A stretch of 64,000 nucleotides of DNA. Source: an uncultured Heliobacteriaceae bacterium. GTDB lineage: Bacteria; Acidobacteriota; Blastocatellia; RBC074. Numbering within the stretch: the stretch's first letter is position 1; each line of letters starts with the position of its first letter. Location of the stretch: positions 10,122-74,121 of the forward strand of contig CAYXVZ010000012.1 of assembly GCA_964468345.1 (NCBI GenBank), read 5' to 3'. This document shows positions 1,620 to 63,619 of the stretch, piece after piece. The translations under genes and the position numbers were made by a program. The notes beneath the pieces were generated by a model that was not told the DNA's origin, searched no databases, and worked only from the letters and a program-made list of their open reading frames with translations.

Positions 1620-4028
1620 GTGAATCTCACAAGCTCTCGCAACGCAACCGCTCTCTCGCTTCTTTTCCTCTTCGCATTGCCGTTTGTATTCTTCTGGCGC
1701 GAAACGCTGGGCTGGACCACGCTTGGCGACAAGGACGCCGTCTTCTGGTTTTATCCCGCGTATCAGTTCGTCGCCGAGCAATTGAAACAGGGGCATCTGC
1801 CGCTGCTCACGCCATATCTTTATTGCGGTTCGCCGTTGCTGGCGGAATGGCAGGCGGGCGTGTTCGATCCGATGAACTGGATTTATTTGTTCGGCCTGAG
1901 TTCGCGCACATTGACGCTGACGCTGCAACTTAGCTTCGCGCTCGCCATGATCGCGATGTTCGCCTTTGCGCGAAGCCTCGGGCTGCGCCGCCGCGCTGCG
2001 ATCGTCGCAGGGATTATTTATGGTTTGAGCGGCTTCGCCGTGGGCCGCGCGATCTATCCGGGCTTCCTTCATATCTTCGCGCTGGCGCCGCTGGTGCTCT
2101 GCTTCACGGAGCGTCTTTATAAAAATGGCCGATGGCGCGATTGCGTCGGCGGCGCGCTGATCGTCGCGTGGCAGGTCTTCGCCGCGCATCCGCAGCCGCT
2201 GGTTTACTCTTCGCTGCTCGCAAGCGCCTATGCGCTTTATTGCGCTTTCCTGCGGGGCAAAGTCGATCGGCTCTCTTTTCTCTTTCTCGCGAAGTTTTCC
2301 GTCCTCTTTCTCGCCGGCGCCGGCCTCGCGGCCATACAGCTTTTTCCCGCGGCCGAATTCGCGCGCGAATCCGTGCGCCGCGAATGGCCGTTTGAACTCT
2401 TCACCCTGCATTCGCTGCACCCGGCATCGCTGGCGACGACGCTCGTGCCCTTTTTTCACGGCGAGGGAAAAGGGATGTTTCAGATGCCGTATTGGGGACC
2501 GTACTGGCACAACAACGAAGGACAGATTTACCTCGGTGTGATCGCGCTTTCGCTGGCGATTTCTGGAGCCGCAATGGCTTGGCGCTTTCGCGGCGACACG
2601 GGCCGGTTCTGGAGCTTCGTCGCGATCGCCGGCACGATTCTCGCGATGGGGCGATATTCCGGGCCGATCGCGAAACTGCTCTTTCACATCCCGATCCTCG
2701 GGCAGTTTCGCAGCCCCAATCGCCACTGGCTCGAAGTCACCTTGGCTGTGGCCGTTCTGGCCGGCCTTGCCGTCGATCGATTGCTTCGCGAAGAGGCCAG
2801 ACACATGGCGCGCGTCATCGTGGCGACGGCGATCGGCCTTGCGGTGATCTGCGCAGCAATGGCTCTGTGCGTTTTGAAATGGCCGCAAGCGGCGGAAGGC
2901 CTGCTGCGATCGCTGCCGGATCTGGCCGCCTTGCCGCCCGGCTTTTTGCAGGCCGCGGGCGCGGAATTCGTGGCGCCGGCGATCGCCGCCGTAATCGCTA
3001 CGCTCGCGCTCGGACTGTTTGTCCGGCGTCCTTTGCATCGTATTTCATACGGGATTTTATTGGGCATTCTGATCGCGGACTTCCAGGTCTATGCGTTGTA
3101 TGCGCCGATCAACAATCCCGCAAAACTCGAAACACTGCTCGGCAAGGCGATGCCGGCAGCACTTGCGGCGCAGCAAAGCGAACAGAGTCCGATCCGCTAT
3201 CACATCATGCTCGATGCCTCGACGGGCGAATTCAATCCGTTCTGGTTTTACGGGCATGAAATGGCCACGGGCTATGATCCGCTGCTCAGCCAGCAGCGCA
3301 AGATCTTTCTCGGCATCGACGAAGCCGGCCGCACCTTCAATGAAAGCATGCTCGATGCGCGGGATCGAACGCTCGATCTGCTCAACGTCCGCTATGTCCT
3401 GGTTCGCGAAGGATTCACCGCGCCGCTTGACCCCGCGCGCTGGGCTGAGCTTCCCACGCGAAGCGAGGTTTTGCCGTATAAGGAGTACCGCATCTTCGAA
3501 AACCGCCGCGTCCAGCCGCGCGCCTGGCTTGTCGATCGCGTCGAAGTAAATTGGGAAGGCGACCAGCACAAAAAGATCCGCGGTCAGATCGCGAGCTTCG
3601 ATCCCGCGAAAGCCGCGCTGGTCGAACCTGTGCAGGATGGAACGGACGCATGGTACAGGCGATACGAACTGCCCGCGGAATCGACCGCTTCGCAGGGGAC
3701 CGCACAAATTCTCCAGCGCCGTCCGGGTCATCTGGTCATTGAGACGAACGCGGCCCGTCCCGCCCTTCTTGTCCTCAGTGAAATTGCGCAACCCGGCTGG
3801 AAGGCGCTCATCGACGGCCGACCTGTGCCATGGCGCCGTGTGGACTTCCTGTTGCGCGCGGTGGCCCTGGAAGCCCCCGGCAGGCACACGGTCGAATTCA
3901 TTTATGATCCGGCATCCGTGAAAACTGGAATGATTGTGAGCCTGCTGACGGCTCTGGGGTTGCTCTTTATTTGGATGTGCACGCGTCCCCGCCTGGGTAC
4001 GCACGCGTCCCCGCGTTCTATAAAATAA
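1620..4028 (+). CDS. YfhO-family bacterial membrane protein (802 aa)
   Basis: GTG start. The N-terminal two thirds are polytopic and the C-terminal domain is soluble. The conserved N-terminal YfhO-like region reads FWRETLGW...DAVFWFYPAYQF...LLTPYLYCGSPLLAEWQAGVFDPMNW. Confidence 0.65.
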   Translation: MNLTSSRNATALSLLFLFALPFVFFWRETLGWTTLGDKDAVFWFYPAYQFVAEQLKQGHLPLLTPYLYCGSPLLAEWQAGVFDPMNWIYLFGLSSRTLTLTLQLSFALAMIAMFAFARSLGLRRRAAIVAGIIYGLSGFAVGRAIYPGFLHIFALAPLVLCFTERLYKNGRWRDCVGGALIVAWQVFAAHPQPLVYSSLLASAYALYCAFLRGKVDRLSFLFLAKFSVLFLAGAGLAAIQLFPAAEFARESVRREWPFELFTLHSLHPASLATTLVPFFHGEGKGMFQMPYWGPYWHNNEGQIYLGVIALSLAISGAAMAWRFRGDTGRFWSFVAIAGTILAMGRYSGPIAKLLFHIPILGQFRSPNRHWLEVTLAVAVLAGLAVDRLLREEARHMARVIVATAIGLAVICAAMALCVLKWPQAAEGLLRSLPDLAALPPGFLQAAGAEFVAPAIAAVIATLALGLFVRRPLHRISYGILLGILIADFQVYALYAPINNPAKLETLLGKAMPAALAAQQSEQSPIRYHIMLDASTGEFNPFWFYGHEMATGYDPLLSQQRKIFLGIDEAGRTFNESMLDARDRTLDLLNVRYVLVREGFTAPLDPARWAELPTRSEVLPYKEYRIFENRRVQPRAWLVDRVEVNWEGDQHKKIRGQIASFDPAKAALVEPVQDGTDAWYRRYELPAESTASQGTAQILQRRPGHLVIETNAARPALLVLSEIAQPGWKALIDGRPVPWRRVDFLLRAVALEAPGRHTVEFIYDPASVKTGMIVSLLTALGLLFIWMCTRPRLGTHASPRSIK

Positions 4029-4119
4029 AAGCCGCGAAGCGCTCCTTATTTCAGTCAGGATAAGGAGCGCTTCGCGGTTTTTATTTTATAGCACGCGGGG
4101 ACGCGTGCGTACCCAGGGT
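3992..4119. terminator. 128-bp near-perfect palindrome acting as a bidirectional terminator between convergent genes
   Basis: GGGTACGCACGCGTCCCCGCGTTCTATAAAATAAAAGCCGCGAAGCGCTCCTTA faces its exact reverse complement across the loop TTTCAGTCAGGA. It overlaps the stop of the YfhO gene and lies 2 nt from the stop of the minus-strand gene 4121..5038. Confidence 0.6.
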
Positions 4120-5038: not shown

Positions 5039-5170
5039 TCAGATTCCCCCCTCGACATTGTCTTTCAAGTGGTGCCGGCTCCGGCGTTTCCGTCAGCCCG
5101 CACATTTAAGTATAGCGAAGAACGCTGCTTCGCGACAGTTTGAACGAGCCGGACGGGAGCGGCTTGCAGA

Positions 5171-5340
5171 GGTCTGGAAAAGTCTCGGGAAGTCTGGAGA
5201 GGTCTAGAGAAGTCTTTCACTCCACATTGCGTTTTGGACCCCAGGGTGAGACTTCTCCAGACTTTTCAAGACTTTTCAAGACTTTTCCAGACTTCCCCAG
5301 ACTTCCCCAGACTTCCCCAGACTTCCCCAGACTCCTACTC
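5171..5340. repeat. inverted array of decamer repeats (GTCTGGAGAA / AGACTTCCCC units, 10-bp period), family B copy 1
   Basis: AGACTTCCCC occurs four times in tandem and faces GGTCTGGAAAAGTCTCGGGAAGTCTGGAGAGGTCTAGAGAAGTCT on the other arm. The array is intergenic, between the recX stop and the start of gene 4121..5038. Confidence 0.7.
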
Positions 5341-5829
5341 CTCAAACATCCCCTCCGGATTCCGCGTCACGTCGCGAATCTTGCGGCGGACCAGGTCGTA
5401 TTGGAAGCCACGCCGCATCAGATAATCGAAAAGCTTTTTGATTTCCTCGGGCGTCCGCGGGATGCCTTTGAGGCGGATTCGTTTTTCCAGGGCGGTGGTG
5501 AGCAGGGCCTCTTCGTCGTGCTCTTCGTAAGCCTGCTCGAGCGCCTCTTCGACGGCCTGGGCGGGCAACTTTTTCCGCTGCAGATCGCGGCGGAGCCGCA
5601 CCCGGCCGAGCGGTTTCATCGTCAGGCGCGAGTTTGCAAAGTTTGCGGCGAACTGTTCGTCGTTCAGATACCCGAGTTCCCGCAAGCGCTCGATGACTTG
5701 TTCGATGCTCTGGGCATCGGCCCATTCCTTTTCGGCCAGCCGCGATCGCATCTCGGCGATCGTCCGGGGCTTATAGGAAAGCAGCCGCAGGGCCCGCTCC
5801 ATGGTCTTTTCATAAGGTGTTTTGGCCAC
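5335..5829 (-). CDS. recX: recombination regulator RecX
   Basis: 164-aa product with the characteristic three-repeat helical architecture and RecX-like motifs (KTMERALRLLSYKPRTIAEMRSRL, LGYLNDEQFAANFA). Confidence 0.75.
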   Translation of the reverse strand: MAKTPYEKTMERALRLLSYKPRTIAEMRSRLAEKEWADAQSIEQVIERLRELGYLNDEQFAANFANSRLTMKPLGRVRLRRDLQRKKLPAQAVEEALEQAYEEHDEEALLTTALEKRIRLKGIPRTPEEIKKLFDYLMRRGFQYDLVRRKIRDVTRNPEGMFEE

Positions 5830-5929: not shown

Positions 5930-6679
5930 ATGTCAGGGCATAGTAAATGGCATACAATCAAGCATAAGAAAGGCGCGCTCGATGCCAAGCGCGGAAAGCT
6001 CTTCACCAAGCTGATCAAGGAACTCACAATCGCGGCCCGCACGGGCGGCACGGGCGATCCGAATCAGAACCCCCGCCTTCGCAAGGCCGTCAACGACGCC
6101 AAGGGCGCGAACATGCCGAACGATACGATCGACAGGGCCATTCGACGCGGGACGGGCGAAGAAGAAGGCGTGCAGTACGATGAAATCACGTACGAGGGCT
6201 ATGGCCCCGGCGGCGTCGCGGTGATGGTCGAGACCACGACAGACAACCGAAATCGCACGGTGTCCGAGCTTCGTCACCTGTTTTCAAAAAACGGCGGCAA
6301 CCTCGGTGAATCCGGATCGGTCGCGTGGATTTTCCATAAAAAGGGCCAGATCATCCTCGATGCCACGCTAAAGGGCGAAGATGAAATGATGGAACTCGCC
6401 CTCGATGCCGGGGCGGAAGATATGACGAACGACGGCGAAACCTACCAGATTCTCACGGCGCCCGAAGATTTCCACGCCGTGCTCGATAAGGTCAAGGCAG
6501 CAGGCCTCGAGCCCATGTCATCCTCGATTGCGCTGATCCCGCAAAACACCATCAAGCTCGAAGGCTCGCAGGCGAACCAGATGCTGAAATTGTACGACGC
6601 CCTGGACGATCACGACGACGTCCAGAACGTCTATGCCAATTTCGAAATGGACGAGGCCACGATGCAGCAGCAAGCGTAA
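5930..6679 (+). CDS. yebC: YebC/PmpR family DNA-binding transcriptional regulator
   Basis: N-terminus MSGHSKWHTIKHKKGALDAKRGKLFTKLIKE is diagnostic for YebC/TACO1. Product is 249 aa. Confidence 0.9.
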   Translation: MSGHSKWHTIKHKKGALDAKRGKLFTKLIKELTIAARTGGTGDPNQNPRLRKAVNDAKGANMPNDTIDRAIRRGTGEEEGVQYDEITYEGYGPGGVAVMVETTTDNRNRTVSELRHLFSKNGGNLGESGSVAWIFHKKGQIILDATLKGEDEMMELALDAGAEDMTNDGETYQILTAPEDFHAVLDKVKAAGLEPMSSSIALIPQNTIKLEGSQANQMLKLYDALDDHDDVQNVYANFEMDEATMQQQA

Positions 6680-6680
6680 G

Positions 6681-6755
6681 CGAGTCTGGCGTCCGGAGTC
6701 CGGAGTCACATTGCCGGAATCGACTCCAGACTCGGGACTTCAGACTCCGGACTCT
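6681..6755. repeat. family B inverted decamer-type repeat, copy 2 (between yebC and recU)
   Basis: GAGTCTGGCGTCCGGAGTCCGGAGTCACATTGCCGGAATCGACTCCAGACTCGGGACTTCAGACTCCGGACTC. Confidence 0.6.
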
Positions 6756-6757
6756 TT

Positions 6758-7456
6758 ATGGATATCAAGCGGCGCGGCGCGGAAACGGGCAGTGCGTTTC
6801 AAGAGGCGCTCAATCGAACCAATGAAGCCTACGAGCGTCTGGGGCGCGCCTGCATCACCCGCAAAGCCATTCCGGGAAAATATCTGATCGAACGGGGAGA
6901 GAAACGCCGCGGGCTTTCGCTCCCCTCGATTGAACTCACACCGATCAAAGGCCAGGCCCGCCTGGCGTCCGCAAAGCTCAGCCAGCTTCTCGACAAAAAT
7001 CAGAATGGCCGGAAATTCATTCCCGAATCGAAGGCCGAGCCCGACTACGGCGGCGTGCTCGCGCCCGATGGGCGGGGAATTTTTTACGACGCCAAGACCA
7101 CCCGGCGCGAAGTTTTGGATTTCGACAATCTACATGCCCATCAGATCACGTATCTGGAAAGGACGGCGGCTTGCGGCGCGGTCGCGGGCTTTCTGGTCGA
7201 ATTCAGCCGGCGAGGGGAAGTCTATTTTCTTCCCATTCAGATTCTGATCTGCTGGCGCGACCAGAGTGAACGCAAAAGCCTGCCGTACCAGTTTTTCGCG
7301 GATGCGCTGTGCCAGGCGCGGGCGGGCAAGGGGATGGTGTTGTTTGATTACCTCGATGCCATTGAGGAGCAGGAGAATCGATATGGCCACGATTATTCCC
7401 GCTTTCAATTGACCGAAGCCCATACGCGCTCCACGCGCAAATCCGCAACGCGATAA
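6758..7456 (+). CDS. recU: Holliday junction resolvase RecU-like protein
   Basis: FYDAKTTRREVLDFDNLHAHQITYLER aligns to the B. subtilis RecU catalytic segment ([28 protein letters not shown]). The gene occupies the position after yebC where ruvC normally sits. Confidence 0.65.
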   Translation: MDIKRRGAETGSAFQEALNRTNEAYERLGRACITRKAIPGKYLIERGEKRRGLSLPSIELTPIKGQARLASAKLSQLLDKNQNGRKFIPESKAEPDYGGVLAPDGRGIFYDAKTTRREVLDFDNLHAHQITYLERTAACGAVAGFLVEFSRRGEVYFLPIQILICWRDQSERKSLPYQFFADALCQARAGKGMVLFDYLDAIEEQENRYGHDYSRFQLTEAHTRSTRKSATR

Positions 7457-11093: not shown

Positions 11094-11504
11094 TGCAATC
11101 CGCTACTGAGCAACCATTGCCAGCGTTCGGCGAACTGCAAAGAGACGCTAATCATTTCTGTATTGATTCAAGGCAGGCAAAAGCAAAATCTTCTTAGCGA
11201 TTCGGGTAACTTCTACCCGGATTCTTCAATCGGCCCGCAGGTGCGTGAAGGTGATTTTGCAAGATACTGTATTTACAGGATTTATGGTAAGTTGAGGTGG
11301 CGAGAATCTCTGGCATCATCCTTGCTTTATACAGGGTGGGGCAACGAGATACCAGGTGGAAATTCTCCACTGACGGTGTCAGGTGATTATCAGGGTGAGG
11401 AAGATAGTCACCAGAATCAGGCGCTGCAGATCTCCCACGACTGCAGCGCCTACTTTTTTATCCGCCATCCTTTCCCTTCATCATAAAATCTTTGTAGAAA
11501 TCAA

Positions 11505-11580
11505 AAGGCAAATATCAAAAGGCAAAAGTGAAGAAGAATACTTCACTTTTGCCTTTTGATATTTGCCTTTTGATTTCTTC
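11505..11580. repeat. family C hairpin element (AAATCAAAAGGCAAATATCAAAAGGCAAAAG ... CTTTTGCCTTTTGATATTTGCCTTTTGATTTC), copy 1
   Basis: Near-perfect hairpin of about 76 bp directly abutting the stop of the minus-strand metalloprotease gene. Confidence 0.7.
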
Positions 11581-14208
11581 TTAGCGAACCGCGATCGTCA
11601 CCTGCCGGCTGGGAATGCCGTTGCGCGTAATCACGAGGCTATGGATTCCCGAGGAGATGTTTTCGGGCAGATGGATGTTGATCTGATTCAGGCCGGTGAA
11701 GCCTGGCGCGCGGCCCGCATAGCCGACGATGGTTGGGACGCCATTGATCAAGGCCTGAACGTTGGAACTGACATCCCCGCCGCCATCGGTTGCATCGGCG
11801 CCGAGTCCGGTGGCAAAGAGTGCGAGAATCGTCGGCAGGCCGTTGGGCTGCTTGGGATTGAAAGGCGCGCCGCCGCCGCGAATCGCGTCCACTGCAACGG
11901 CCGGGCCGTTCCCACTTGCGTCCACCGTGAATACCGCCGGCGCGGTCGGCGCGATCTGCACCGCGCCCGCCCGGATCCGTTTACCTTCGTTAAAGACTTC
12001 GATCAGCGCCGTAGCGGAGGAAGCCTGCGGTGTCAGCGTCGTTGCAGCGGTTGTGCGCGGGATTTGAAAGTTGATCTGATTCGCCGAAACGAAAAACAGC
12101 GGCGCGGGAACGCCATTGATGCGAATCTGCAAATTGGAAAGTGTTGTCGGCAGCGGATTCGTGAACGCGAATCCTTCGCCAGCTACGAAAGCCGTTCCGA
12201 ACAGGGAGGCGATCGCTCCGGGCGCAAGAACCGGTTGGTAACTTGCCGCCGACGCCGCCACGACCGCGCGAGAGGGACCATCCGCGGAAAGTCCCGTGTT
12301 GATGGTCGCCATGAGATCCGTCGACTGTCTGAAATAACTCTCAAACGCGAAGCGGTACAATTGAACTTTATCGAGCAAGCCGTCCGATACCGCCGTGTTC
12401 TGGCGAGTCACCAGGACGACCGCGGTGCGAAAGCTTCGCTGGCTCTTATCCGGCTCCGGCAGGCGCGTATTGTTCGCCTGCACGATGTCTTCCACCGCGA
12501 CGCGCTGGCGGAATCCACCGGTTGTAACGCCGGGTTGCGGCGCGGAGTCTTTGGTCGACGCGCTGCCGGCCGGATTGACGATGACGAAAGTCTCTCCCAC
12601 CGTTGAGGCCGAGCGAAAGCCCATCAGATATTGATCCAGCCGCGAATAGCCATCGACCAGTCCGACCGATGTGAATGTGCCGTTCGCATTGTCGACCCAG
12701 GCATTGCCTTCCAGCGAAGAAGAGCGACGGGCCGCCGGATGGCTGATGGTCGATTCCGTGTTCAGGAAGAAATTCCAGTGGGCATTGTCGCGTCCGAGAA
12801 GCGCCAGGTCCGTGCCCGGAAATTTCACGAACGAGAGCCAGCGATGGCCGAGTTCATGCGCCATGATCGAGAGCCCGTGATTGGCGCCCAGAAAACGCGT
12901 TGTGGGAAAGGCGGGATAGGCGCTGGAAATATTGCTCAGGTTCAAAATGCCCTGTATCCTCCGCGATCCCAGCAAGTCCGTCGTATCCGGATCTGATTGC
13001 GGCAGCCCGATGCCGGTCGCATCGTTGCGCACCGGATCGTAAAAGGCGAAGGCTCCGCCGAGGTCATAGTCGAAATCGGTGAAGAAGGAAATGAAATCGT
13101 AATTGTCCTGGTTCGGATGCGTGTCATAAAACGCTTTCACCGCGGCCAGGTAATCGAAGCGCGTGGTCAGCGAGAAGAACTCCGCGACCGGCGTGTTGAT
13201 CGATTCGTTCGGCGGCAGGCTCAGATCCACGAGCCGCGGCGTCGTTCGCGACTGCCCCGGCGTAATGCCGACCAGGGCCTGCGACGTCAGCGTTGCCGCA
13301 TCATAGGTGAACGCGATTCGCCCCGTGTTGAAGAGGGTGATCTGAAATCTGTGAACGCCATTGTCCGTGCTCGGATTGCTTGGGAAATCGCGGACATTGC
13401 TCCAGGTGAACATGACGCGGTCCGCTGACTTGCGAACGTAAACGCCGTTCTCGCCAGGCAGAGCGGCTGGTCGCGCATCCAGATCGTGCCAGTAGGCCGC
13501 GATGCGCGGCAGGCCGGTTTGAAATTCCGAAAGCTTTGCCACGGAACTCACCGCGCCTTTATCAAAGGCAGCTTGACTCGTTCCCCCCGGCCGAAAGACC
13601 AGATTGCCGTTCGACGTCAATGCGACGCTGGAATAATTAACACCGAAGAAATTGAAATCGAACCCCAGGTCTTCGATCAGATAGGCGTCATCGCCGGGCT
13701 CGGCGTTGCCGAGCGGATTCACCGCCGGCGCAACGCTCAGGTCGCGGCGCGCTCCAAGATTGTTATCGAACAGGGAACTGGTTGTGGCAATGGAATAGCC
13801 ACTGTTGGCGGGTGTAAAGCTGACGGCGCGCAGATTCAAATCGAAAAATCTCGGCGCAATGACAAGTCGGGCATCGCCCTGAATCACGGTTATGTCGTTA
13901 ATGTCCTGTGAGCTGGTTTCCGCTTTAAGCGCCATTGCGGCGCTGCCTTCCGGCCCGCGGAGTGATTGTTGATTGGCTTCGTGCCAGACGCGGGCTTCAG
14001 CGGATTGCTCTTCACGGGTCAGCGGATTTTTTGTCGCATTTCCATGTACATCGCCCAGACGCGCGACGCCCATACTGCGGGCTTCAGTCGGCCGTTGGTC
14101 GGCCGTCGGCATCATTCGCCCGAATAGCGATGCCGTGAGGAACAAGGCGATAATCGTCGAGATCAAGATGAGGAGACGATTCATCGCGCGCGTGCTGCGG
14201 GTGAACAT
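11581..14208 (-). CDS. secreted zinc metalloprotease (HExxH) with tandem C-terminal Ig-like/Solibacter-type domains
   Basis: Signal peptide and the MAHELGHRWLSF zincin motif. Two C-terminal repeats of about 100 aa end in ...LVITRNGIPSRQVTIAVR. Confidence 0.6.
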   Translation of the reverse strand: MFTRSTRAMNRLLILISTIIALFLTASLFGRMMPTADQRPTEARSMGVARLGDVHGNATKNPLTREEQSAEARVWHEANQQSLRGPEGSAAMALKAETSSQDINDITVIQGDARLVIAPRFFDLNLRAVSFTPANSGYSIATTSSLFDNNLGARRDLSVAPAVNPLGNAEPGDDAYLIEDLGFDFNFFGVNYSSVALTSNGNLVFRPGGTSQAAFDKGAVSSVAKLSEFQTGLPRIAAYWHDLDARPAALPGENGVYVRKSADRVMFTWSNVRDFPSNPSTDNGVHRFQITLFNTGRIAFTYDAATLTSQALVGITPGQSRTTPRLVDLSLPPNESINTPVAEFFSLTTRFDYLAAVKAFYDTHPNQDNYDFISFFTDFDYDLGGAFAFYDPVRNDATGIGLPQSDPDTTDLLGSRRIQGILNLSNISSAYPAFPTTRFLGANHGLSIMAHELGHRWLSFVKFPGTDLALLGRDNAHWNFFLNTESTISHPAARRSSSLEGNAWVDNANGTFTSVGLVDGYSRLDQYLMGFRSASTVGETFVIVNPAGSASTKDSAPQPGVTTGGFRQRVAVEDIVQANNTRLPEPDKSQRSFRTAVVLVTRQNTAVSDGLLDKVQLYRFAFESYFRQSTDLMATINTGLSADGPSRAVVAASAASYQPVLAPGAIASLFGTAFVAGEGFAFTNPLPTTLSNLQIRINGVPAPLFFVSANQINFQIPRTTAATTLTPQASSATALIEVFNEGKRIRAGAVQIAPTAPAVFTVDASGNGPAVAVDAIRGGGAPFNPKQPNGLPTILALFATGLGADATDGGGDVSSNVQALINGVPTIVGYAGRAPGFTGLNQINIHLPENISSGIHSLVITRNGIPSRQVTIAVR

Positions 14209-14390: not shown

Positions 14391-14900
14391 TTAATAGAAC
14401 AGGTATTTTCTCCAGGCTGCGTCGGAACGGCCTAAATACCGCATGATTTGGCGATTGACGTGCAGGCTGAAGGACTGCGGGCGTTTGATGAGTTTCATGC
14501 CGGCTTCTTCCGGCAAACAATTGCCTTTGCGGTTGTTACACCGCTTGCAGCAGGCCACGAGATTATCCCAGTTCGAACTGCCGCCGCGGGACTTCGGCAG
14601 GACATGGTCCAGCGTAAGTTCCGACGGCGTAAAGACTTTTCCACAATACTGGCAGGTATTGTGGTCGCGCAGCAGAATGTTCTTCCGGGACAGGCTCTTC
14701 CGCTCGAACGGAATATGGACGTAATCCGTCAGCCGAATCACGGACGGCACGTGCATCGAGGCGCGAGAGGAGCGATAGATCTGCTCCTGCTTTTCTTCTG
14801 TCCGCGCTATTCCCTTCATGATCAATACGATCGCGCGCCGCGTCGTGCAAACATTGATCGGCTCGTAAGTTGAATTCAGGACGAGAACCCTACCATTCAT
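14391..14900 (-). CDS. HNH endonuclease
   Basis: CQYCGK...[11 protein letters not shown]...[14 protein letters not shown] is an HNH motif with two CxxC zinc knuckles. Confidence 0.8.
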
Positions 14901-18368: not shown

Positions 18369-18492
18369 AAGGCATTTCCTCTGATTCGGATTCGGAAGGG
18401 AAAGACGAGAACACGAAACAATCGAAACTTTTATTGTCGCTTCAACCTTGATCATCGTATCGGTCACTGGACCAAACAGCAAAAGAAGAGTT

Positions 18493-18582
18493 CACCGCGA
18501 AGAAACGAAGAGCACGAAGTTTGTTCCGTATTTTCTTCGTGCTCTTCGTTTCTTCGCGGTGAAAACATCTCCTTGAGTTCCA
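18493..18582. repeat. family A hairpin element (CACCRCGAAGAAACGAAGAGCACGAAG ... CTTCGTGCTCTTCGTTTCTTCGYGGTGAAAACAT), copy 1
   Basis: Perfect 27-nt terminal inverted repeats around a 15-nt loop. It sits between the start of the secreted protein gene and the stop of the kinase gene. Confidence 0.75.
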
Positions 18583-18640: not shown

Positions 18641-21190
18641 TCAATTCGCCAGGCCGACGCGGGCCAGCACCTGCTGGAAGCGCGGATGCTTGCGCAGCGG
18701 ATCGAAGACCGGCTCGACCTGCAACTCCATCAGGCCGCCGTCGCGCTCCGCAACCGCGGTTTCTAGCGCGGCCAGGGCTTTGTTCTGCTCTCCGATTCGC
18801 AGCAGCACGGCCGCAATCGCCGTCGAGGGAACGTAGCGTTCTTTCGACTCCGCCGTCAATTGCGAGAGATATTCCCGCCAGAACGATTCGCGGCCTTTCG
18901 AATACGCCGTTTTCAGGGCATTGACGTGTTCGGGAGCTCCCCGGCCCAGTTGTTGCGCGCGGATGAATTCCAGAATCGCATCCTGCGGCTGGCCTTTCTG
19001 TTCCAGAACGAGGCCCAGGCTGGAGTGCGCCGGGCCGTAATTGTCATTGAGCAGCAGCGTCTGGCGAAGATGATCGACTGCATCGTTATAGTCTCGCGCA
19101 TAATAAGACACCGTGCCGAAGGTCTGATTGACGGGCAGGGATTTCGGATCGAGTTTGCGCGCCGTTTGCAGTTCGGCATTCGCTTCGGCCGTCTTTCCCT
19201 GCAGGGCCAGAAACTCCGCATACCGGAGGCGCGGCGTCGCGTTTTTCGGCGCGAGTTCGATCGCCCGTTTGAATTCGCGCTCAGCCTCGCTCAGATTCCA
19301 ATCGTAGCGCAGGTAAACCTGCGCCAGCGTCAGGTGCGCGTCGGGCAGATCGCTGTTCTTGCCGAGCGCGATGAGGGCGACGTCTTTTGCCTTTTGCATT
19401 CCTTTGCGCGGCGGCAGGCCGTCGGAATTCAGCGCGTGACAGGCCGCGCAGCCCGCGGCCGCCAGCGAATAGGACGGATCTTTCGCGAAGGCGGCCTCGA
19501 AAAATTCATCGGCTTTTTGCCGGTCTTCCTGCGTTCCGCGGTTCCAGTGATAACGGCCTTTCAAAAACAAATCATAGGCTTCCGGGCTGTTCGGCATGGA
19601 CTTCGCGAGGCTTGCGGCCGCCGCATCGCTCAATCGGAATTCGAGTTTGCCGGTGATGCTGCGCGAAATTTCATCCTGAATCGTGAGCAGGTCGGAAAGC
19701 TTTTTGTTGAATCGCTCGCCCCAGATCTGTCGCCCGTTGCGGGTGTTGACCAGTTCGGCATTGATCGTCAGGTTGTTTCCGCGGCGTTCGATGCGGCCGA
19801 GCAGAACGGCCTCTACATCCAGATCGCGGCCGACGGCGCGTTCGTCGATCTGTTGTCCTTTATAACGGAAGACCGAATTCCGCGCGCTGATGCTCAGGTC
19901 ATCCCATTGCGAAAGGGAATTGATGATGCCTTCCGTGATTCCCTCGCTCAGGTACTCCGCGTCCGCATCGCCCGTGACATTGACGAAGGGCATCACGGCG
20001 ATCGTGTCGATTCTGGCGGCCTGCTGTTGATAGCGCGTATAGAAAAAGGCGCCCGCCGCCGCCAAACCCAGCAACAGAACCGCCAGCGCCGGCAGCAGAA
20101 GTTTGCGCTTTTTCTTCGGTTCCGCCTGCGGCTGCGGCATCGGCGTCACGATCGTTTGCACCGGCTCGGCCACGGAAGGAATGGCGCTGGTCTCATAGCT
20201 GAAATGCTCGCCGGAGGCCGGCGTCACGACCGTGTCGAGACCGGCCGAGCCGATCAGGCCCTCGACATAGGTCGTCTCGAGATGCACGGCGGGATCGGAT
20301 GAAATCACGGGAATTCCCTGATCGAGCGAATACTCCAACCGCGATTTGATTCGCTTGAGCGCGGTGATGACTTCATAGCCGTACTGAAATCTCTCTTCCC
20401 GGTTTTTGGCCAGCAGCTTATAGATCACCTCTTCGAGTTCGATCGGAATGCCCGGGATGCGTTCGGACGGGCGCGGCGGAATGCTGGTCAGCAGGGCGGC
20501 GATGATGTCGCTTGTCGTCGGTCCCGCGAAGGGACGCTCGCCGGTGATCATTTCATAGAGCACGACGCCGAGGCTGAACAGATCCGTGCGGCCGTCGAGC
20601 TTTTGCCCGCGCGCCTGTTCCGGCGACATATACGCCACCGTGCCGATCACCAGCCCGGGTTGCGTCTGCAGCATCGATCGCGTGTTGACCATCGCTTCAT
20701 CGAGGTCGGCGGTGTCCGTTTCCGTCAGCTTCGCCAGGCCGAAATCCAGGACTTTGATATAGCCATCCGGGCGAAGCATGATGTTCTCGGGTTTGATGTC
20801 GCGATGAATGATGCCCGCATTGTGCGCCGCGCCGAGCGCGCTGGCCGTCTGAATCGCAATTTCGAGCGCATCGCTCAAGCTCAGCTTTCGTCCCGCAATC
20901 GCATCTCGCAGCGTTTGCCCCTCGATGAACTCGGTCGCAATGAAGTGCGTGTCCTCCGTCCGGCCGATATCGAAGATCGTCAGGATGCTCGGGTGATTCA
21001 GGCCCGAGGCCGACCGCGCTTCATTCTCGAAGCGCCGCACGCGAAGCTCATCCTGCATAAACGTTTCGGGCAGAATCTTGAGCGCCACCTTGCGCCGCAG
21101 CCGCTCATCCTCCGCGAGATAAACCTCGCCCATTCCGCCCGCGCCCAGCTTTTTTATGATGCGATAGTGTGAAAGCGATTGCTCGATCAT
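18641..21190 (-). CDS. Ser/Thr protein kinase with transmembrane segment and C-terminal TPR repeats
   Basis: The kinase starts at MIEQSLSHYRIIKKLGAGGMGEVY with catalytic loop HRDIKPENIML and DFGLA. A TM helix and TPR-like repeats follow. The ORF continuation upstream to 21298 runs into a GC-rich hairpin and is rejected. Confidence 0.8.
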   Translation of the reverse strand: MIEQSLSHYRIIKKLGAGGMGEVYLAEDERLRRKVALKILPETFMQDELRVRRFENEARSASGLNHPSILTIFDIGRTEDTHFIATEFIEGQTLRDAIAGRKLSLSDALEIAIQTASALGAAHNAGIIHRDIKPENIMLRPDGYIKVLDFGLAKLTETDTADLDEAMVNTRSMLQTQPGLVIGTVAYMSPEQARGQKLDGRTDLFSLGVVLYEMITGERPFAGPTTSDIIAALLTSIPPRPSERIPGIPIELEEVIYKLLAKNREERFQYGYEVITALKRIKSRLEYSLDQGIPVISSDPAVHLETTYVEGLIGSAGLDTVVTPASGEHFSYETSAIPSVAEPVQTIVTPMPQPQAEPKKKRKLLLPALAVLLLGLAAAGAFFYTRYQQQAARIDTIAVMPFVNVTGDADAEYLSEGITEGIINSLSQWDDLSISARNSVFRYKGQQIDERAVGRDLDVEAVLLGRIERRGNNLTINAELVNTRNGRQIWGERFNKKLSDLLTIQDEISRSITGKLEFRLSDAAAASLAKSMPNSPEAYDLFLKGRYHWNRGTQEDRQKADEFFEAAFAKDPSYSLAAAGCAACHALNSDGLPPRKGMQKAKDVALIALGKNSDLPDAHLTLAQVYLRYDWNLSEAEREFKRAIELAPKNATPRLRYAEFLALQGKTAEANAELQTARKLDPKSLPVNQTFGTVSYYARDYNDAVDHLRQTLLLNDNYGPAHSSLGLVLEQKGQPQDAILEFIRAQQLGRGAPEHVNALKTAYSKGRESFWREYLSQLTAESKERYVPSTAIAAVLLRIGEQNKALAALETAVAERDGGLMELQVEPVFDPLRKHPRFQQVLARVGLAN

Positions 21191-21203
21191 ATGCTTATAA
21201 AAC

Positions 21204-21356
21204 AGGGGGGAGGGGCGAGGGATGAGGGGCGAGGGCAGAAGATTGATTCTCCGCTGCTGCCTTCGATTATTGGGTGCGTGGCAAGTAATGCCTTTCACTC
21301 GCCCCTTGTCCCTCTCCTCTCGTCCCTTTCTTCTCGCCCCTCGCCCCTTTCCTTCG
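21204..21356. repeat. GC-rich GGGGCGAGGGGCGAG-type palindromic element (family E), copy 1
   Basis: GGGGAGGGGCGAGGGATGAGGGGCGAGGG faces CTCGCCCCTTGTCCCTC...CTCGCCCCTCGCCCC. The element is intergenic. Confidence 0.55.
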
Positions 21357-21923
<567 letters not shown>

Positions 21924-25560: not shown

Positions 25561-25565
25561 AGGCA

Positions 25566-25640
25566 GGGGGAAGGGAAGAGGGGCGAGGGGCGAGAGAAAA
25601 CTTGCCTCTCGCCCCTCGCCCCTAACCCCTCGCCCCTTTC
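25566..25640. repeat. family E GC-rich palindromic element, copy 2
   Basis: GAGGGGCGAGGGGCGAGAGAAAACTTGCCTCTCGCCCCTCGCCCCTAACCCCTCGCCCC. Confidence 0.55.
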
Positions 25641-25644
25641 TTTT

Positions 25645-27273
25645 ATGATTGGCACAACCATCGGCAATTACAAAATCACCGGGGAACTGGCGAAAGGCGG
25701 GATGGGCGCGGTGTATCGGGCGCATCACGTGACGCTGCCGCGCGAAGTGGTCGTGAAATCCATTTTGCTTTCCTCGTTTCCGCCGCATCTGCAGGAACAG
25801 CTCAAGACGCGTTTTCTGCGCGAAGCGCTGGTGCAATCGCAACTCGACCATCCGAACATCGTGCGGGTGCTGGAATTTTTCGTGACGGAGGAGAACTATT
25901 TTCTGGTCATGGAATACGTCGCCGGCCTGAGCCTGCGCGATTTGCTGCGCCGGCAGGGACGACTGAGTCCCGAACAGGCATTGCCGTTGTTCAAGCAGGC
26001 GCTGAGCGCGCTCGAATACGCGCACAATTTCACCTATGTCGATGAAGGCGGCGGGCGCTACACGGGCATTACGCATCGCGATATCAAGCCGGGAAATTTT
26101 CTGCTCGACGGCATGGCGCGGTTGAAACTGACGGATTTCGGCATCGTCAAAACCGCGACCGAACAGGGAATGACGCGGACCGGATTCAATCCGGGCACGG
26201 CCGAATATATGTCGCCGGAACAGATTCGGGGCGCGAAAGTGGATACGCGATCGGACCTCTATAGCCTGGGCGTGACGTTTTATGAAATGCTGGCCGGGCG
26301 GCTGCCCTTTCCGCATACCGATGCCGGGTCGGAATATGAAGTGATGCGCGGCCATATCGAACTGACGCCGCCGCCCCTGCACGAACTCGTGCCGGGGCTG
26401 CCGGCGCCGCTGGCGGCGATCATCACGAAAGCGCTGGAAAAAGATCCGAACACGCGCTTTCAAACCGCGACGGATTTTTTGCAGGCCGTCATTGCCTATG
26501 AGCGCCGCGGCATCACCGCGCCGCAATCCGTGCGCGCACCGCAGCCGCAGGGAACGCATTCGATGACGGAAGTGCTGCCCGTCGCGGCCCGGCCGAATAC
26601 GAATCCATCGACCGATTTGACGGCTCCGCGCGGGGCGCAGGTGAGTGCGCAGCCGACCATCGTGACAACGCCCGCGCCGGTCCAATCGACCAATGCCGCG
26701 CCGCCCGCGGCCGTGCCCGCGACCAATGTCATGCCGCCGCCCGTGCGAACGGCCGATCCCGCGCCGCGTCCTGCGCCGCCGCCTGCGCCGCCGGCATCGC
26801 AATCGACGAACAGTACCGGCTTTTTTATCCTGATTGCGCTCATCGGCCTTGCGCTCATCGGCGGCGCGGCTTTTTTCACCTTTCAGAAAAAGGTCGCCGA
26901 CGCCGTCTCGACGACGATGACGACATCGAGCCCCGCGCCGCAGATCCAGCCTACAAAGCCTCCCGCCGCAGTCGAAGATAACCGCCTTCGCCTCGCTCGT
27001 GCCGCGGAAGAAAAAGAGGAATATAAAACGGCCATTCAGCAGTACGAATCCTTCCTCGGCGAAAATGCGCAATCGGCGGAGGCCGCCGCGCTTCGCGAAC
27101 GCGTCGTCATGCTCAAAAAAGTAGCGGGTTTGCTGTCCGTCGCTGAGACCGAACTGGACAAGGAAGATTACGCCGCGGCTAAGCGCGATTTCGAAGCTGT
27201 GCTCAAGCTTCGCCCGGAGTCGAAGCTCGCGCAGGCCGGGATTCTATTGATCGAGAACGAAACGAAAAAATAA
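25645..27273 (+). CDS. Ser/Thr protein kinase with Pro/Ala-rich linker, TM helix and C-terminal TPR-like region
   Basis: Glycine loop GELAKGGMGAVYRA, catalytic loop HRDIKPGNFLL, and DFGIV. Confidence 0.8.
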   Translation: MIGTTIGNYKITGELAKGGMGAVYRAHHVTLPREVVVKSILLSSFPPHLQEQLKTRFLREALVQSQLDHPNIVRVLEFFVTEENYFLVMEYVAGLSLRDLLRRQGRLSPEQALPLFKQALSALEYAHNFTYVDEGGGRYTGITHRDIKPGNFLLDGMARLKLTDFGIVKTATEQGMTRTGFNPGTAEYMSPEQIRGAKVDTRSDLYSLGVTFYEMLAGRLPFPHTDAGSEYEVMRGHIELTPPPLHELVPGLPAPLAAIITKALEKDPNTRFQTATDFLQAVIAYERRGITAPQSVRAPQPQGTHSMTEVLPVAARPNTNPSTDLTAPRGAQVSAQPTIVTTPAPVQSTNAAPPAAVPATNVMPPPVRTADPAPRPAPPPAPPASQSTNSTGFFILIALIGLALIGGAAFFTFQKKVADAVSTTMTTSSPAPQIQPTKPPAAVEDNRLRLARAAEEKEEYKTAIQQYESFLGENAQSAEAAALRERVVMLKKVAGLLSVAETELDKEDYAAAKRDFEAVLKLRPESKLAQAGILLIENETKK

Positions 27274-28621: not shown

Positions 28622-30868
28622 TTAGTGTAACTTCGTGCGACTTCGTGGATGAAATTCGTTTTCTTGAATTCGATCGTTACCCGGATGATAGGAGCGTTCG
28701 AGATGCGCGTTGATTTCCGCCAGCGTCATGCGAACCGGTTTGAACTTGCCCGCGGCATAGAGTTCGGCCTGATCCAGATGATGCGGCGATTTCGGATCGG
28801 GGCTTTGCCCGAGCACCAGGATGGATTGTGCGCGAAGCTTTTTGCCGAATTCGACGACCGCCACGAAGGAATTGCCCGCCGTGCCATAGCGGCGCTTCTG
28901 GCCTTTTTCCGCGCGCGCTGAATAGGTAAAGACAACGCCCGCCGGCCCGGGCCCGCCCGCGACGGGGAAGCTCGGCCGCGCGTCGCTGAAAGGCTCGTCG
29001 CCCGAGGTGTGGACGCGCTGCAACCGATTGATCTCGCCCCAGGCCACGCGCCACGTGCCGAATTCCTTTTCGAGATCCCGCATGGTTTCTTCGAGCTTTT
29101 TGAGCGGATCGTCGTCTTTGCTCTTCAGCTTTTCATGCGTGAGCACAAACAGCGTTGTCGGAATGGATTCGATCGTCGCGACGAAGTTCCAGTTCGCCAG
29201 CTCCCTGATCGCCGGCGCGAGCTGTTCCGCCCGGGGCCCCTCCGTTTCGCGAAGCGCAAACCACGCCGCCAGCATTCGCTGCACGATCGGCGGCGCTTCG
29301 TTCACCGTCGTATCCGTTGCCGCCTTCGTCCATTCCTCATACGTGAATTTTTCCTGCCCGGTCAGAATGCGCAGCGAAGACTTTGCTCGCGGCGTCTGTT
29401 CCTCGGGGGCGAGATAGGCCGGGAAGTCTTCTTTTCGCGGATTGCCGAAGGCCGTCATTTGAAAGGGCGTCGAATTGCAATTCTGCAAAAAGCCGGCGGG
29501 CGGATTCAGCCGTTGCGGCAGTTCAGCGAAGGCGTGATAGCCCTTCCATTCCGTTGCCGGATCGTCGCCCGCGACCGCTTTGCTCCAGTCGAATTTCGGA
29601 TCGCGTTTCGGAACCGCATTCCCGTGCACATAAAAGATATTGCCCGCGGCATCGGCGTAAAGCGTGTTCGAGCCGGTCAAGGCTCGCTGCGACAGCGCGA
29701 GTTTAAAGGCCGCGAAGCTTCTCGCCCGATTCATCGCGAATCGTTGCACCAGTTCGCCGCCCTCTTCCATCCGGCTCGCGCGGGCCGCAACCGCTTTGCC
29801 GTTTTGCAGGCCGATGATCGGCCCGTGATGCGTCTTGCGAAAGCGATAGGCGCGCGACTCGATGCCCGCGGCGGTTTTCACGCGGACTTCGTCGGTCCAT
29901 TCGATCGCCGTGCGATAGCCCGCGCCGTAGCGATAGGCCAGCGGCCGTTTGGGATCATCGAAGCTTTCGAGATAGCCATCGACCGTGTCGGCGTAGTTGT
30001 TCGTATGACTCCAGCCCAGCCATTGATTGAAGCCCGTGCGAATGTACGGCGTGCCGAGAATGGCAAAGCCGTACACATCGATGCCTTCCTCGCTCTGCAG
30101 ATGCGCTTCATAACGCTGGCCGCCGCCGAAAAATCCCACATGCGGATTGATAAAAAGCAGCGCATGGCCCGATGCGCTTTTCGACGGCCCGGCCGCCCAC
30201 ATGTTCGAGCCTTCCGTGGGCTCGTCGCAGGAAGAATTTTCACCACGAAGAAACGAAGAGCACGAAGAAAGAGAGTCTTTAAGCAAAATGGCTCCTGCTC
30301 TCTCTTCGTGCTCTTCGTTTCTTCGTGGTTTCAACATCTCTGCTGTATTTTGCAGCGGCTCACCGATTCGTATCTCTTCTCGTTTCAGCCCATAGCGGTT
30401 CAGCGCGCCGATGCGGCTCATTCGGCTCATGGCCAGCGTGTGCCAGGGTTCAAATTTCGTGAGCAGGCGCGGCTTCTGTTCCGGATGTTTTGCGATATAA
30501 AAATTGATCCCCGCGGCGAAGGCATCGCAGAGCGCCCGCTCGCGCGGCGGCATTGCGGCGTATTCGGCCTTCGAGCGTTTTTCGATTTCAAAGGCCCGAT
30601 AGAGCAGGTCGTTTTCCAATCCCTTCTCGCCTTCGATCTCCGCCTGCCGTCCCACGGCGCGAATGAAATCGGTTTCGAGCTGCCAGAAATTGTCTTCGCA
30701 TTGCGCATACATCAGGCCGAAGACGACCGCCGCATCCGTCTTGCCGAAGATATGCGGCACGCCGTACGAATCGCGATGGATCGTCACGGACTGCGAAAGG
30801 TCAACCCTTTGCGCAAATGCTGAGCCGACGGTAAAGACGAGGAATAGCGAAAGGAACAGGCTACGCAT
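28622..30868 (-). CDS. penicillin acylase family (Ntn-hydrolase) precursor, with a family A repeat inserted in-frame in the spacer region
   Basis: Signal peptide MRSLFLSLFLVFTVGSAFAQ. The beta-subunit N-terminal nucleophile motif SNMWAAGPSKSASGHALLFINPH is present. Spacer sequence [33 protein letters not shown] is encoded by the repeat copy at 30236..30343. Confidence 0.75.
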   Translation of the reverse strand: MRSLFLSLFLVFTVGSAFAQRVDLSQSVTIHRDSYGVPHIFGKTDAAVVFGLMYAQCEDNFWQLETDFIRAVGRQAEIEGEKGLENDLLYRAFEIEKRSKAEYAAMPPRERALCDAFAAGINFYIAKHPEQKPRLLTKFEPWHTLAMSRMSRIGALNRYGLKREEIRIGEPLQNTAEMLKPRRNEEHEERAGAILLKDSLSSCSSFLRGENSSCDEPTEGSNMWAAGPSKSASGHALLFINPHVGFFGGGQRYEAHLQSEEGIDVYGFAILGTPYIRTGFNQWLGWSHTNNYADTVDGYLESFDDPKRPLAYRYGAGYRTAIEWTDEVRVKTAAGIESRAYRFRKTHHGPIIGLQNGKAVAARASRMEEGGELVQRFAMNRARSFAAFKLALSQRALTGSNTLYADAAGNIFYVHGNAVPKRDPKFDWSKAVAGDDPATEWKGYHAFAELPQRLNPPAGFLQNCNSTPFQMTAFGNPRKEDFPAYLAPEEQTPRAKSSLRILTGQEKFTYEEWTKAATDTTVNEAPPIVQRMLAAWFALRETEGPRAEQLAPAIRELANWNFVATIESIPTTLFVLTHEKLKSKDDDPLKKLEETMRDLEKEFGTWRVAWGEINRLQRVHTSGDEPFSDARPSFPVAGGPGPAGVVFTYSARAEKGQKRRYGTAGNSFVAVVEFGKKLRAQSILVLGQSPDPKSPHHLDQAELYAAGKFKPVRMTLAEINAHLERSYHPGNDRIQENEFHPRSRTKLH
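30236..30343. repeat. family A hairpin element, copy 2 (inside the penicillin acylase CDS)
   Basis: The termini CACCACGAAGAAACGAAGAGCACGAAG ... CTTCGTGCTCTTCGTTTCTTCGTGG match copies at 18493 and 50693. Confidence 0.75.
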
Positions 30869-33693: not shown

Positions 33694-33788
33694 GAAAATC
33701 AAAAGGCAAAAGGCAAATATCAAAAGGCAAAAATAGTCAGCTCCTATTTTGCCTTTTGATATTTGCCTTTTGCCTTTTGATTTCATTT
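33694..33788. repeat. family C hairpin element, copy 2
   Basis: AAAATCAAAAGGCAAAAGGCAAATATCAAAAGGCAAAAATAGTCAGCTCCTATTTTGCCTTTTGATATTTGCCTTTTGCCTTTTGATTTC. Confidence 0.7.
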
Positions 33789-44238: not shown

Positions 44239-44613
44239 CGTGCTCCAGGCTGCGAGCAAGTGCATGATTTAGGGCTTTGCGGGCGGTCCCATGGCAGTTG
44301 GTCCCCGAAACGTCGACTTTGGAATTGCGGGCGGAATGTAGCACGAGGCCATTCAGCACCGATAGCGGAGAAATACATAGCAAGAAAATAATTTCTTCCG
44401 GGTGTCATTTTCCGGGTGGGGATTTTCGAATGTATTGATAGGAACCGGCGGCGCGAAGTGGTGTGATGGGGCGGGAGCAATGGGTGGTGTCGGCAGTCCC
44501 AGGGTTCAGAAAAAATTCAAGGAAAATTCAATCCGGGTTCAGGATTTGAATCGTAGAGCTGCTCTATAAAATAACTTCAAATCCGTGGACATAACATTGA
44601 AAAGGCAAGGACT

Positions 44614-49225: not shown

Positions 49226-49320
49226 AAATTCAACACAAAGGTTCAAAGACTCAAGGGGTCAAAGATCCCCTTTGCAGATCGGCCTTCGAACCTTTGATCC
49301 TTTGAACATTTGTGTTGAAA
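49226..49320. repeat. intergenic hairpin (CAACACAAAGGTTCAAAGACTCAAGGGGTCAAAGATCCCCTTTGCAGATCGGCCTTCGAACCTTTGATCCTTTGAACATTTGTGTTG)
   Basis: Long imperfect palindrome between the cupin start and the amidohydrolase stop. Confidence 0.5.
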
Positions 49321-50692: not shown

Positions 50693-50866
50693 ATTCACCA
50701 CGAAGAAACGAAGAGCACGAAGAAAGATGGAAAAAAAGAGGCCGAGAAAGGGATGGAAAGAATTGACAGATCCGGCGGTAAATTTCTCTCCGTCTCTCTA
50801 TCTCTTCATCTTTCTTCGTGCTCTTCGTTTCTTCGTGGTGAAAACATTTCTTTGAATTCCAGACCA
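50693..50866. repeat. family A hairpin element, copy 3 (longest copy, about 170 bp)
   Basis: GAATTCACCACGAAGAAACGAAGAGCACGAAG ... CTTCGTGCTCTTCGTTTCTTCGTGGTGAAAACATTTCTTTGAATTC. It is flanked by GAATTC on both sides. Confidence 0.75.
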
Positions 50867-52716: not shown

Positions 52717-53409
<693 letters not shown>

Positions 53410-53410
53410 A

Positions 53411-53592
53411 AATGCAGGAGGCAGGAATGGGAAGGAAGCAGGAGGCAGCGGCAGTAGGCAGTACTTTTGCCGAGTTATAACTGATATTGAATCGACTTTA
53501 AGAAAATTGCGATCCTGGCTTGGACCCTGCCTACTGCTGCTGCCTCCTGCTTCCTTCCTATTCCAGCCGCTGCCTCCTGCTTCCTTCCTATA
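53411..53592. repeat. inverted repeat GCAGGAGGCAGGAATGGGAAGGAAGCAGGAGGCAGCGGCAGTAGGCAG ... CTGCCTACTGCTGCTGCCTCCTGCTTCCTTCC immediately 3' of the tRNA
   Basis: About 48-nt arms around a loop of about 75 nt. It reaches the stop of the beta-CASP gene. Confidence 0.55.
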
Positions 53593-61261: not shown

Positions 61262-61332
61262 TATGGGTCCCTTCAAATTGTCGTGGAGCACTCGCGACTT
61301 TAGAGCGTTTGAAACTGCGAGTTTACAAAGGA

Positions 61333-61490
61333 AGGTCCAGGGAAGTCTAGAGAAGTCTCGGGAAGTCTGGAGAAGTCTGGAAAGGTCTTGAGAGTTTTTT
61401 CTTCAATGACATGTGCTGATTTTGCGAGAGAGACTTCTCCAGACTTCCCGAGACTTCTCTAGACTTTTCCAGACTTTTCCAGACTCTTCA
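61333..61490. repeat. family B inverted decamer array, copy 3
   Basis: GGGAAGTCTAGAGAAGTCTCGGGAAGTCTGGAGAAGTCTGGAAAGGTCT faces AGACTTCTCCAGACTTCCCGAGACTTCTCTAGACTTTTCCAGACTTTTCCAGACTC. The array is intergenic, 5' of the lipoprotein gene. Confidence 0.7.
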
Positions 61491-63473: not shown

Positions 63474-63619
63474 ACAATGTTTTTCAGGCGAAGGTTTGGG
63501 GGCGGCACACAATTCTTGAGAAATTGCATTATACGAGCAATGCTATGTAATTGTAAATAATAAACTAATATGATGCTGCCCAGGGCGAAGTCAGCGCAGG
63601 CGAGTTTCTTACGGGATTG

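Follow-up and report, generated by a model that had tools for sequence, protein, structure and literature searches.

Inverted arrays of tandem decamers form REP-like extragenic palindromes beside stop codons in a Blastocatellia lineage of the Acidobacteriota

Short tandem units that face their own reverse complements across a loop occupy intergenic spacers in a 64-kb stretch of an uncultured bacterium of the class Blastocatellia (contig CAYXVZ010000012.1, 64,000 nucleotides, hereafter the window), and they raise the question of whether such arrays act as DNA, act as RNA or do nothing for their host. The Acidobacteriota rank with the most abundant bacteria of soils, and to our knowledge almost nothing is known of their non-coding DNA or transcript ends. 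The original prediction placed three copies of one repeat family, Family B, in the window and took its helical-turn spacing to suggest either cooperative binding of a protein along one DNA face or a structured RNA.

Two of these three copies were confirmed as decamer arrays. Element 1 comprises a left arm of approximately five units at 5169–5216 (GAAGTCT plus a purine-rich spacer, reading the plus strand), a 32-nt loop at 5217–5248 without homology to the loops of other copies, and a right arm at 5249–5333 of 8.5 AGACTTYYCN units with a pyrimidine-rich spacer, ending in the fourfold run of AGACTTCCCC that had been anticipated on one arm. Element 3 is built likewise from a left arm of 5–6 units (61332–61393), a 37-nt loop (61394–61430) and a right arm of 5.5 units (61431–61486). 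Tandem Repeats Finder (TRF) returned a period of 10 in all four arms of the two elements and the spacing is strictly 10, which upholds the 10-nt units first described and disposes of the 11-nt ones. As expected, reverse-complement units sit on the opposite arm, GAAGTCT arrays facing AGACTT arrays with 83–89% complementarity, and the core of element 3 pairs at 36 of 36 positions. Whole elements are approximately 155–165 nt long, with arms of 36–85 nt that are arrays of non-palindromic decamers. Across the 25 units of the window AGAC is invariant, positions 5–8 are only C or T, a C is fixed at position 9 and position 10 is unconstrained, the variation consisting almost wholly of pyrimidine-to-pyrimidine transitions. 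A Family B copy can be described as two inverted arrays of 3–9 decamers, AGAC-YYYY-C-N (equivalent to N-G-RRRR-GTCT), around a loop of 10–65 nt.

The pattern AGACTTN4AGACTT, with up to one mismatch, was found 21 times in the 64-kb window against 0.15 expected, a count that no shuffle equalled, and all 21 matches are confined to elements 1 and 3. Both elements also bear out the long imperfect palindrome and potential structured RNA that had been proposed, with predicted RNA folds of −92.4 kcal/mol (minus strand) and −78.1 kcal/mol (plus strand) for element 1 and of −85.9 and −91.1 kcal/mol on the two strands of element 3, z-scores of −5.8 to −9.2 and no shuffle as stable. The Family B arrays are genuine non-coding sequence with a strong capacity to fold on either strand. 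Chance low-complexity sequence, which has nothing in its favour, is already refuted by the excess of pattern matches, the z-scores and the recurrence in other genomes described below, and its probability is practically nil.

Both decamer elements lie directly beside stop codons. The right arm of element 1 ends 1 nt from the stop codon (5335–5337) of the minus-strand RecX gene (5335–5829), and that of element 3 ends 1 nt from the stop codon (61488–61490) of a minus-strand gene for a TPR protein, whose homologues are named Blastocatellia, Blastocatellales or Acidobacteria, names that make Blastocatellia the most likely source of the window. The next genes on the same strand start 131 nt (at 5038, element 1) and 40 nt (at 61291, element 3) away. 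Pfam confirmed the intergenic setting that had been described, with recX, yebC/recU and the TPR gene as neighbours, and corrected one identity, the supposed lipoprotein gene at 60260–61291 (minus strand) encoding instead an SH3_3-domain protein. As a separate observation, a motif GTTCT(T/C)CGCTATACT (window 5039–5165) is shared with two loci, L103 and L105 (L numbers denote compared loci), downstream of recX, where RecX identity is approximately 65%. Situated between the hairpin and the gene that follows, immediately past the hairpin, it probably represents the promoter −10 region of that gene.

The third supposed copy, at 6681–6755, belongs elsewhere. TRF assigned the hairpin at 6682–6754 a period of 7 (units GAGTCCG and GACTCCG), making it a heptamer element of 7-nt units GGAGTCC/GGACTCC that is like Family B in architecture and different in family. 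It fills the spacer between the plus-strand genes for YebC (5930–6679) and RecU (6758–7456), beginning 2 nt past the yebC TAA and ending 3 nt before the recU ATG, a start that is backed by a conserved N-terminus in L104. The yebC stop and recU start lie at opposite ends of one helix (6677–6760), no Shine-Dalgarno sequence is visible in that interval, and the geometry would suit termination-reinitiation coupling between the two genes. We also observed that yebC is followed by recU in the window (5930–7456) and in the closest relatives, and that more distant YebC relatives (L168, L173, L178, L180 and L181) carry the usual yebC-ruvC order with overlapping or abutting genes; it looks as if one Holliday-junction resolvase gene had taken the place of another at the yebC locus.

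The original prediction had set Family B apart from simple hairpin families elsewhere in the window, a contrast that did not survive closer inspection, since most of the other window hairpins, located with TRF and a finder of symmetric palindromes, are likewise built from tandem units, 7–10 nt in period, that face each other in inverted orientation on the two arms. Periodic arms were present in 11 of the 18 intergenic palindromes of the window with arms of at least 20 nt (7 nt, n = 5; 9 nt, n = 2; 10 nt, n = 4). A CAAAAGG heptamer family is represented at 11496–11578 (38 of 38 positions paired), where it abuts the stop of a minus-strand gene (11581–14208), at 33696–33783 (37 of 37 paired) and, in degenerate form, at 63619–63720. 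A GAGGGGC heptamer family occurs at 21204–21348 and 25565–25637, and an ACGAAGA family with 8–9-nt units at 30242–30329, at 18491–18563 (29 of 29 paired) and, within a divergent intergenic region, at 50694–50842. Inverted arrays of a 9-nt unit, AAACGGAAC, at 1452–1556, of 8-nt units (GTTCAAAG-like) at 49229–49319 and of GCAGGAG-type units at 53420–53568 belong to the same class.

Ten of the 11 periodic palindromes in the window (for example those at 1452, 5169, 11496, 21204, 25565, 33696, 53420 and 61343) have a purine-rich 5' arm and a pyrimidine-rich 3' arm, with a mean purine fraction of 0.75, a polarity that is identical whichever strand is considered. As a general rule this polarity was rejected, the mean being 0.54 in the unbiased set of relatives. 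Another palindrome, at 3992–4117 between convergent genes, has 58-nt arms with 56 positions paired, and towards its centre it has the make-up of a textbook bidirectional terminator, with an A-run, a GC-rich stem and a T-run. Approximately 116 nt are missing there in L001, which could represent strain variation or assembly collapse.

To place Family B among other genomes, we searched for three AGACTT cores in phase, each species being represented by a single genome, and recovered at least 96 loci. Approximately 40 of the matches listed derive from Acidobacteriota/Blastocatellia MAGs, with at least 22 loci in a single MAG (DATEFT01). Among the matches listed, approximately 27 have the full inverted decamer architecture, all but one in approximately nine Acidobacteriota/Blastocatellia MAG assemblies, and approximately 22 of these 27 lie within 20 nt of a stop codon. 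Their loops (10–65 nt) and flanks are mostly unrelated between copies. Family B was not found in 379 kb around relatives of YebC (60–85% identity) from Blastocatellia-like loci, so the family is lineage-restricted rather than universal. Elements are present in contigs of strains 98–100% identical to the window, and together with the copies in many Blastocatellia MAGs this leaves no room for the arrays being unique and unconserved, the result by which the original prediction was to have been refuted. On structural grounds it is secure that Family B consists of dispersed, lineage-restricted, REP-like extragenic palindromes with slippage-prone decamer arms. Separately, matches outside the Acidobacteriota (within L022–L099; for example L027, L041 and L099, a Bdellovibrionales MAG, and L030, Neptuniibacter) are long direct arrays of phased AGACTT with up to 14 units and without an inverted partner, an architecture unrelated to Family B.

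Strain comparison also revealed differences within the elements. Two contigs from strains approximately 98% identical, L001 and L004, lack 32 nt of the right arm of element 1 and so have about 5 units there in place of 8.5, and other contigs break within the AGACTTCCCC run or within element 3, all of which may reflect real copy-number variation or assembly collapse. Because short-read contigs break or collapse at these sites, periodic hairpins probably fragment Acidobacteriota MAG assemblies.

The wider class was examined in a palindrome survey of 726 kb, which covered the window, 80 loci of YebC relatives and the Acidobacteriota loci from the pattern scan; arms of at least 20 nt were required, and genes were called crudely from open reading frames and a codon-usage score. 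It returned 141 palindromes, 85 of which abut a stop codon (median distance 8 nt). Occupancy was 27% in convergent, 18% in tandem and 13% in divergent spacers, and within tandem spacers the palindrome was nearer the upstream stop in 51 cases and nearer the downstream start in 22 (p = 0.0009). Approximately one in five intergenic spacers of the survey holds a long palindrome, and approximately 40–60% of those have arms of tandem short units. In the unbiased YebC set (379 kb, 80 loci), 20 of 48 intergenic palindromes (42%) were periodic, compared with just 3.6% of shuffled arms, and the commonest period was 7 nt (n = 12), followed by 8 nt (n = 4), 9 nt (n = 2), 10 nt (n = 1) and 6 nt (n = 1). 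Family B is one family in a wider Blastocatellia class, that of hairpins with periodic arms situated at gene 3' ends; since most periodic arms elsewhere have a period of 7, spacing by a 10-bp helical turn is not common to that class.

Orthologous gene ends carry different members of this class. After the yebC stop, hairpin units of the closest relatives are GTTGATA (L104), GGTTCAC (L106), GTTCAAA (L117), AATTCGA (L113), GCAGATTAC (L130), ATCCTG-type units (L143) and GGGGAGT (L103); others have plain hairpins or none. Since, by our reading, a hairpin abuts the yebC stop in only approximately 40% of YebC relatives, it is dispensable and not obligatory at that position. After recX, L103 and L105 carry a non-periodic hairpin. 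After the TPR gene, L183, with an identical TPR protein, carries Family B, L186 has a GC-rich hairpin and half a CAAAAGG array, and L184 has nothing. With unrelated hairpins at the yebC, recX and TPR gene ends of relatives, gene ends in this lineage are repeatedly occupied by hairpins of fast sequence turnover.

Position and fold stability are the two properties from which we propose a function, and they lead us tentatively, at a little below even probability, to regard Family B as an orientation-independent RNA hairpin with the role of a barrier at 3' ends or between cistrons. Transcription of the upstream gene would yield an imperfect RNA duplex of 35–50 bp directly past the stop codon, and in either orientation this duplex would constitute a REP-like barrier. 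Such a barrier may block 3' exonucleases, attenuate read-through to the next gene or be a substrate for a double-strand RNase, and its strength would be adjustable by the gain or loss of units. Three tests revealed no strand-specific RNA signature, which counts against the barrier reading: G·U and A·C mismatches on the sense strand of the survey palindromes were equally frequent (77 versus 77), giving no strand-specific pairing signal; T content in the 10 nt past the hairpin was 3.13 on the sense and 3.14 on the antisense side (n = 76), with no U-tract enrichment; and the sense and antisense strands were favoured in folding by 36 and 38 elements overall and by 12 and 12 elements of Family B, with an energy difference of +0.36 kcal/mol. 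Also counting against it, approximately 13% of divergent, promoter-side spacers hold such palindromes, the hairpin after yebC is dispensable as described above, the gene context depends on crude gene calls, and the barrier reading gives no account of how one unit comes to be at new loci whose loops are unrelated.

Searches for known signals returned little at these sites. Scans for consensus promoters and terminators found none at element 1 or 3, and an Rfam scan of the window at gathering threshold gave no covariance-model match at the elements. Canonical hairpin-plus-T-run terminators were barely above background across the window, so they mark few gene ends here; this scarcity and the repeated occupation of orthologous gene ends by unrelated hairpins count in favour of the barrier reading.

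A reading at the level of DNA would have a regulator or nucleoid protein bind the GTCT/AGAC cores along one face of the duplex, or would have gyrase or IHF drawn to the arrays in the manner of BIMEs. Such putative binding would accommodate a symmetric element lacking an RNA strand signature, the strict 10-bp spacing, the conservation of the unit in several species and the invariance of AGAC in all 25 window units while the rest varies. We nonetheless consider it improbable, because sister families of identical architecture repeat every 7, 8 or 9 nt and cannot all be helically phased, the elements are located at stop codons and not at promoters, orthologous gene ends carry unrelated units, and substitutions at the variable positions are nearly all transitions, as expected from drift. 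Beyond the arrays, moreover, the unit hexamer occurs 14 times, whereas the median for a hexamer is 24, so it shows no enrichment there. The suggestion that helical-turn phasing indicates cooperative protein binding is consequently unsupported; the 10-bp period is a property of the Family B unit and not evidence of helical phasing, and its match to a helical turn is probably incidental. A DNA-uptake-sequence role was tried separately and rejected on the same absence of hexamer enrichment outside the arrays.

Unit counts differ by locus, and apparently by strain, and each arm has its own order of variants, which indicates replication slippage within arms and counts in favour of the barrier reading with its tuning by unit number. 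A further alternative is that the elements are purely a mutational by-product of slippage-prone repeats and hairpin-prone replication, with neither function nor mobility. Runs of identical units are specific to individual elements, and such element-specific expansions leave the two arms unbalanced (5 versus 8.5 units in element 1, 4 versus 9 in L074 and 12 versus 3 in L100), as a by-product would predict; it would also fit the statement, cited in PMC4679880, that heptamers are the most abundant class of 5–11-nt repeats in many prokaryotes. Mutation of this kind leaves unexplained the presence of one decamer at dozens of unlinked loci in several species, the consistent inverted pairing of two arrays and the bias towards stop codons, and we judge it unlikely. 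Self-templating of the palindrome was also considered and rejected, the variant order not being mirrored between arms (2.69 observed, 2.65 under the null).

The main rival to the barrier reading is that the elements are selfish or neutral mobile palindromes, REPIN- or MITE-like, which are spread by an enzyme or by recombination and tolerated at harmless 3' ends without any host function. Families are multi-copy within a genome and common to related genomes, as is true of Family B and of CAAAAGG, which is present also in L025 and L100, and copies of CAAAAGG and of ACGAAGA have their unit variants in a common order over approximately 30 nt; therefore some copying process exists. Mobility would also agree with a symmetric element free of strand-specific selection, with the depletion, yet not absence, of palindromes in divergent spacers, with the fast turnover at orthologous sites and with the absence of Family B from the 379 kb of other Blastocatellia-like loci. 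The hallmarks of known mobile elements were nevertheless not seen in the copies: by eye, the 27 listed copies of Family B have no conserved termini and their array ends are ragged, no target-site duplications flank them (the feature by which the original prediction sought to recognize a MITE), and their loops are mostly non-homologous. No transposase or RAYT Pfam domain was detected among the approximately 48 ORFs of the 64-kb window, and the arms, unlike REPs, are not themselves small palindromes. On this evidence we consider mobility without function possible and rather doubtful.

Whichever reading applies, REP, BIME and REPIN elements of Proteobacteria are among the nearest described relatives in kind (PMC3733652, PMC2817692, PMC3116915). 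They too are dispersed, multi-copy, hairpin-forming and strictly extragenic, are enriched at gene 3' ends and in convergent or tandem spacers, fall into lineage-specific families and have a debated function (mRNA 3' stabilization, attenuation or binding at the DNA level). Family B shares their dispersed, multi-copy, 3'-end character, with two copies in 64 kb, at least 22 loci in one MAG and approximately 22 of the 27 listed copies at stops. REPs are single imperfect palindromes, 20–40 bp in length, whose head is a conserved GTAG or CGTC and which are linked to RAYT (Y1 HUH) transposases (PMC3733652, PMC2817692), whereas arms of Family B and its class extend over 30–85 nt of tandem 7–10-nt units, no head motif was seen and the host phylum is Acidobacteriota; inspection by eye of the outer and inner ends of the 27 listed copies found no consistent GTAG or CGTC tetranucleotide. 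REPINs, which are two inverted REPs with a homologous spacer, differ in that the loops here are mostly unrelated and vary from 10 to 65 nt. MITEs, including those that contain tandem repeats, are likewise short, non-coding and multi-copy with inverted ends, but no target-site duplication, defined termini or conserved internal sequence was found here.

Also near in kind are the STRR heptamers (short tandemly repeated repetitive sequences) of heterocystous cyanobacteria and the TAACTGA repeats of Beggiatoaceae, which are described as direct arrays, the latter mostly just upstream of start codons (PMC4679880). Intergenic tandem arrays of approximately 7 nt, several unit families per genome and a tendency to slippage are common to both, whereas here two inverted arrays form a hairpin beside stop codons and the flagged unit is 10 nt long. 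Heptamer arrays are the commonest type in the periodic-hairpin class; the flagged family is decameric, and its phylum is not that of the STRR hosts. Intrinsic (Rho-independent) terminators, including bidirectional ones, share the stable hairpin just past a stop or between convergent genes, but the palindromes described here show no U-tract enrichment and have far longer stems (35–58 bp) and larger loops (10–65 nt), and some of them take up an entire spacer within an operon, the next start codon following 3 nt past the stem (6682–6754). Phased arrays such as iterons and the direct repeats of response regulators, found at promoters or origins, differ from a class that lacks common helical spacing and sits at stop codons. 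Searches of the open-access literature turned up no account of Acidobacteriota hairpins built from inverted tandem units, and the class in Blastocatellia is apparently undescribed.

The survey indicates that an abundant type of element is present in a Blastocatellia lineage. If these hairpins act on transcripts, as the barrier reading holds, they would represent a terminator or stabilizer design that falls outside the hairpin-plus-U-tract rule and can be adjusted through the number of repeats; should they be selfish instead, they would form a REP-like mobile family without a known mobilizing enzyme. A broader and frankly speculative proposal, which we think has a small chance of being right, is that Blastocatellia gene 3' ends are marked by modular, U-tract-free hairpins of 7–10-nt units whose slippage would tune read-through, mRNA stability or termination-reinitiation coupling (for instance at yebC/recU), making them adjustable insulators genome-wide; alternatively or additionally, a dedicated enzyme might spread each unit family.

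Several observations in the window stand apart from the hairpins. A group I intron was recognized by Rfam at 53148–53331 (plus strand; 55 bits, gathering score 50), the sole gathering-level match in the window, and the periodic hairpin at 53420–53568 lies just downstream of it; ARAGORN detected no tRNA genes in the window. An HNH endonuclease is encoded by a stand-alone gene at 14391–14900 (minus strand), and three genes encode Ser/Thr protein kinases (18641–21298, 25645–27273 and 41262–44480). Finally, an AhpC/TSA peroxiredoxin-like gene at 21357–21923 (minus strand) is split by one in-frame TGA at 21693–21695, in the context AFTGG-TGA-TKE, which separates the N-terminal half of the Pfam match, ending in its ORF at profile position 39, from the C-terminal half, which resumes in the second ORF at position 45. 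The TGA lies close to the usual position of the catalytic cysteine of a peroxiredoxin, and we regard the gene as a candidate for a peroxiredoxin with selenocysteine and not as a pseudogene.
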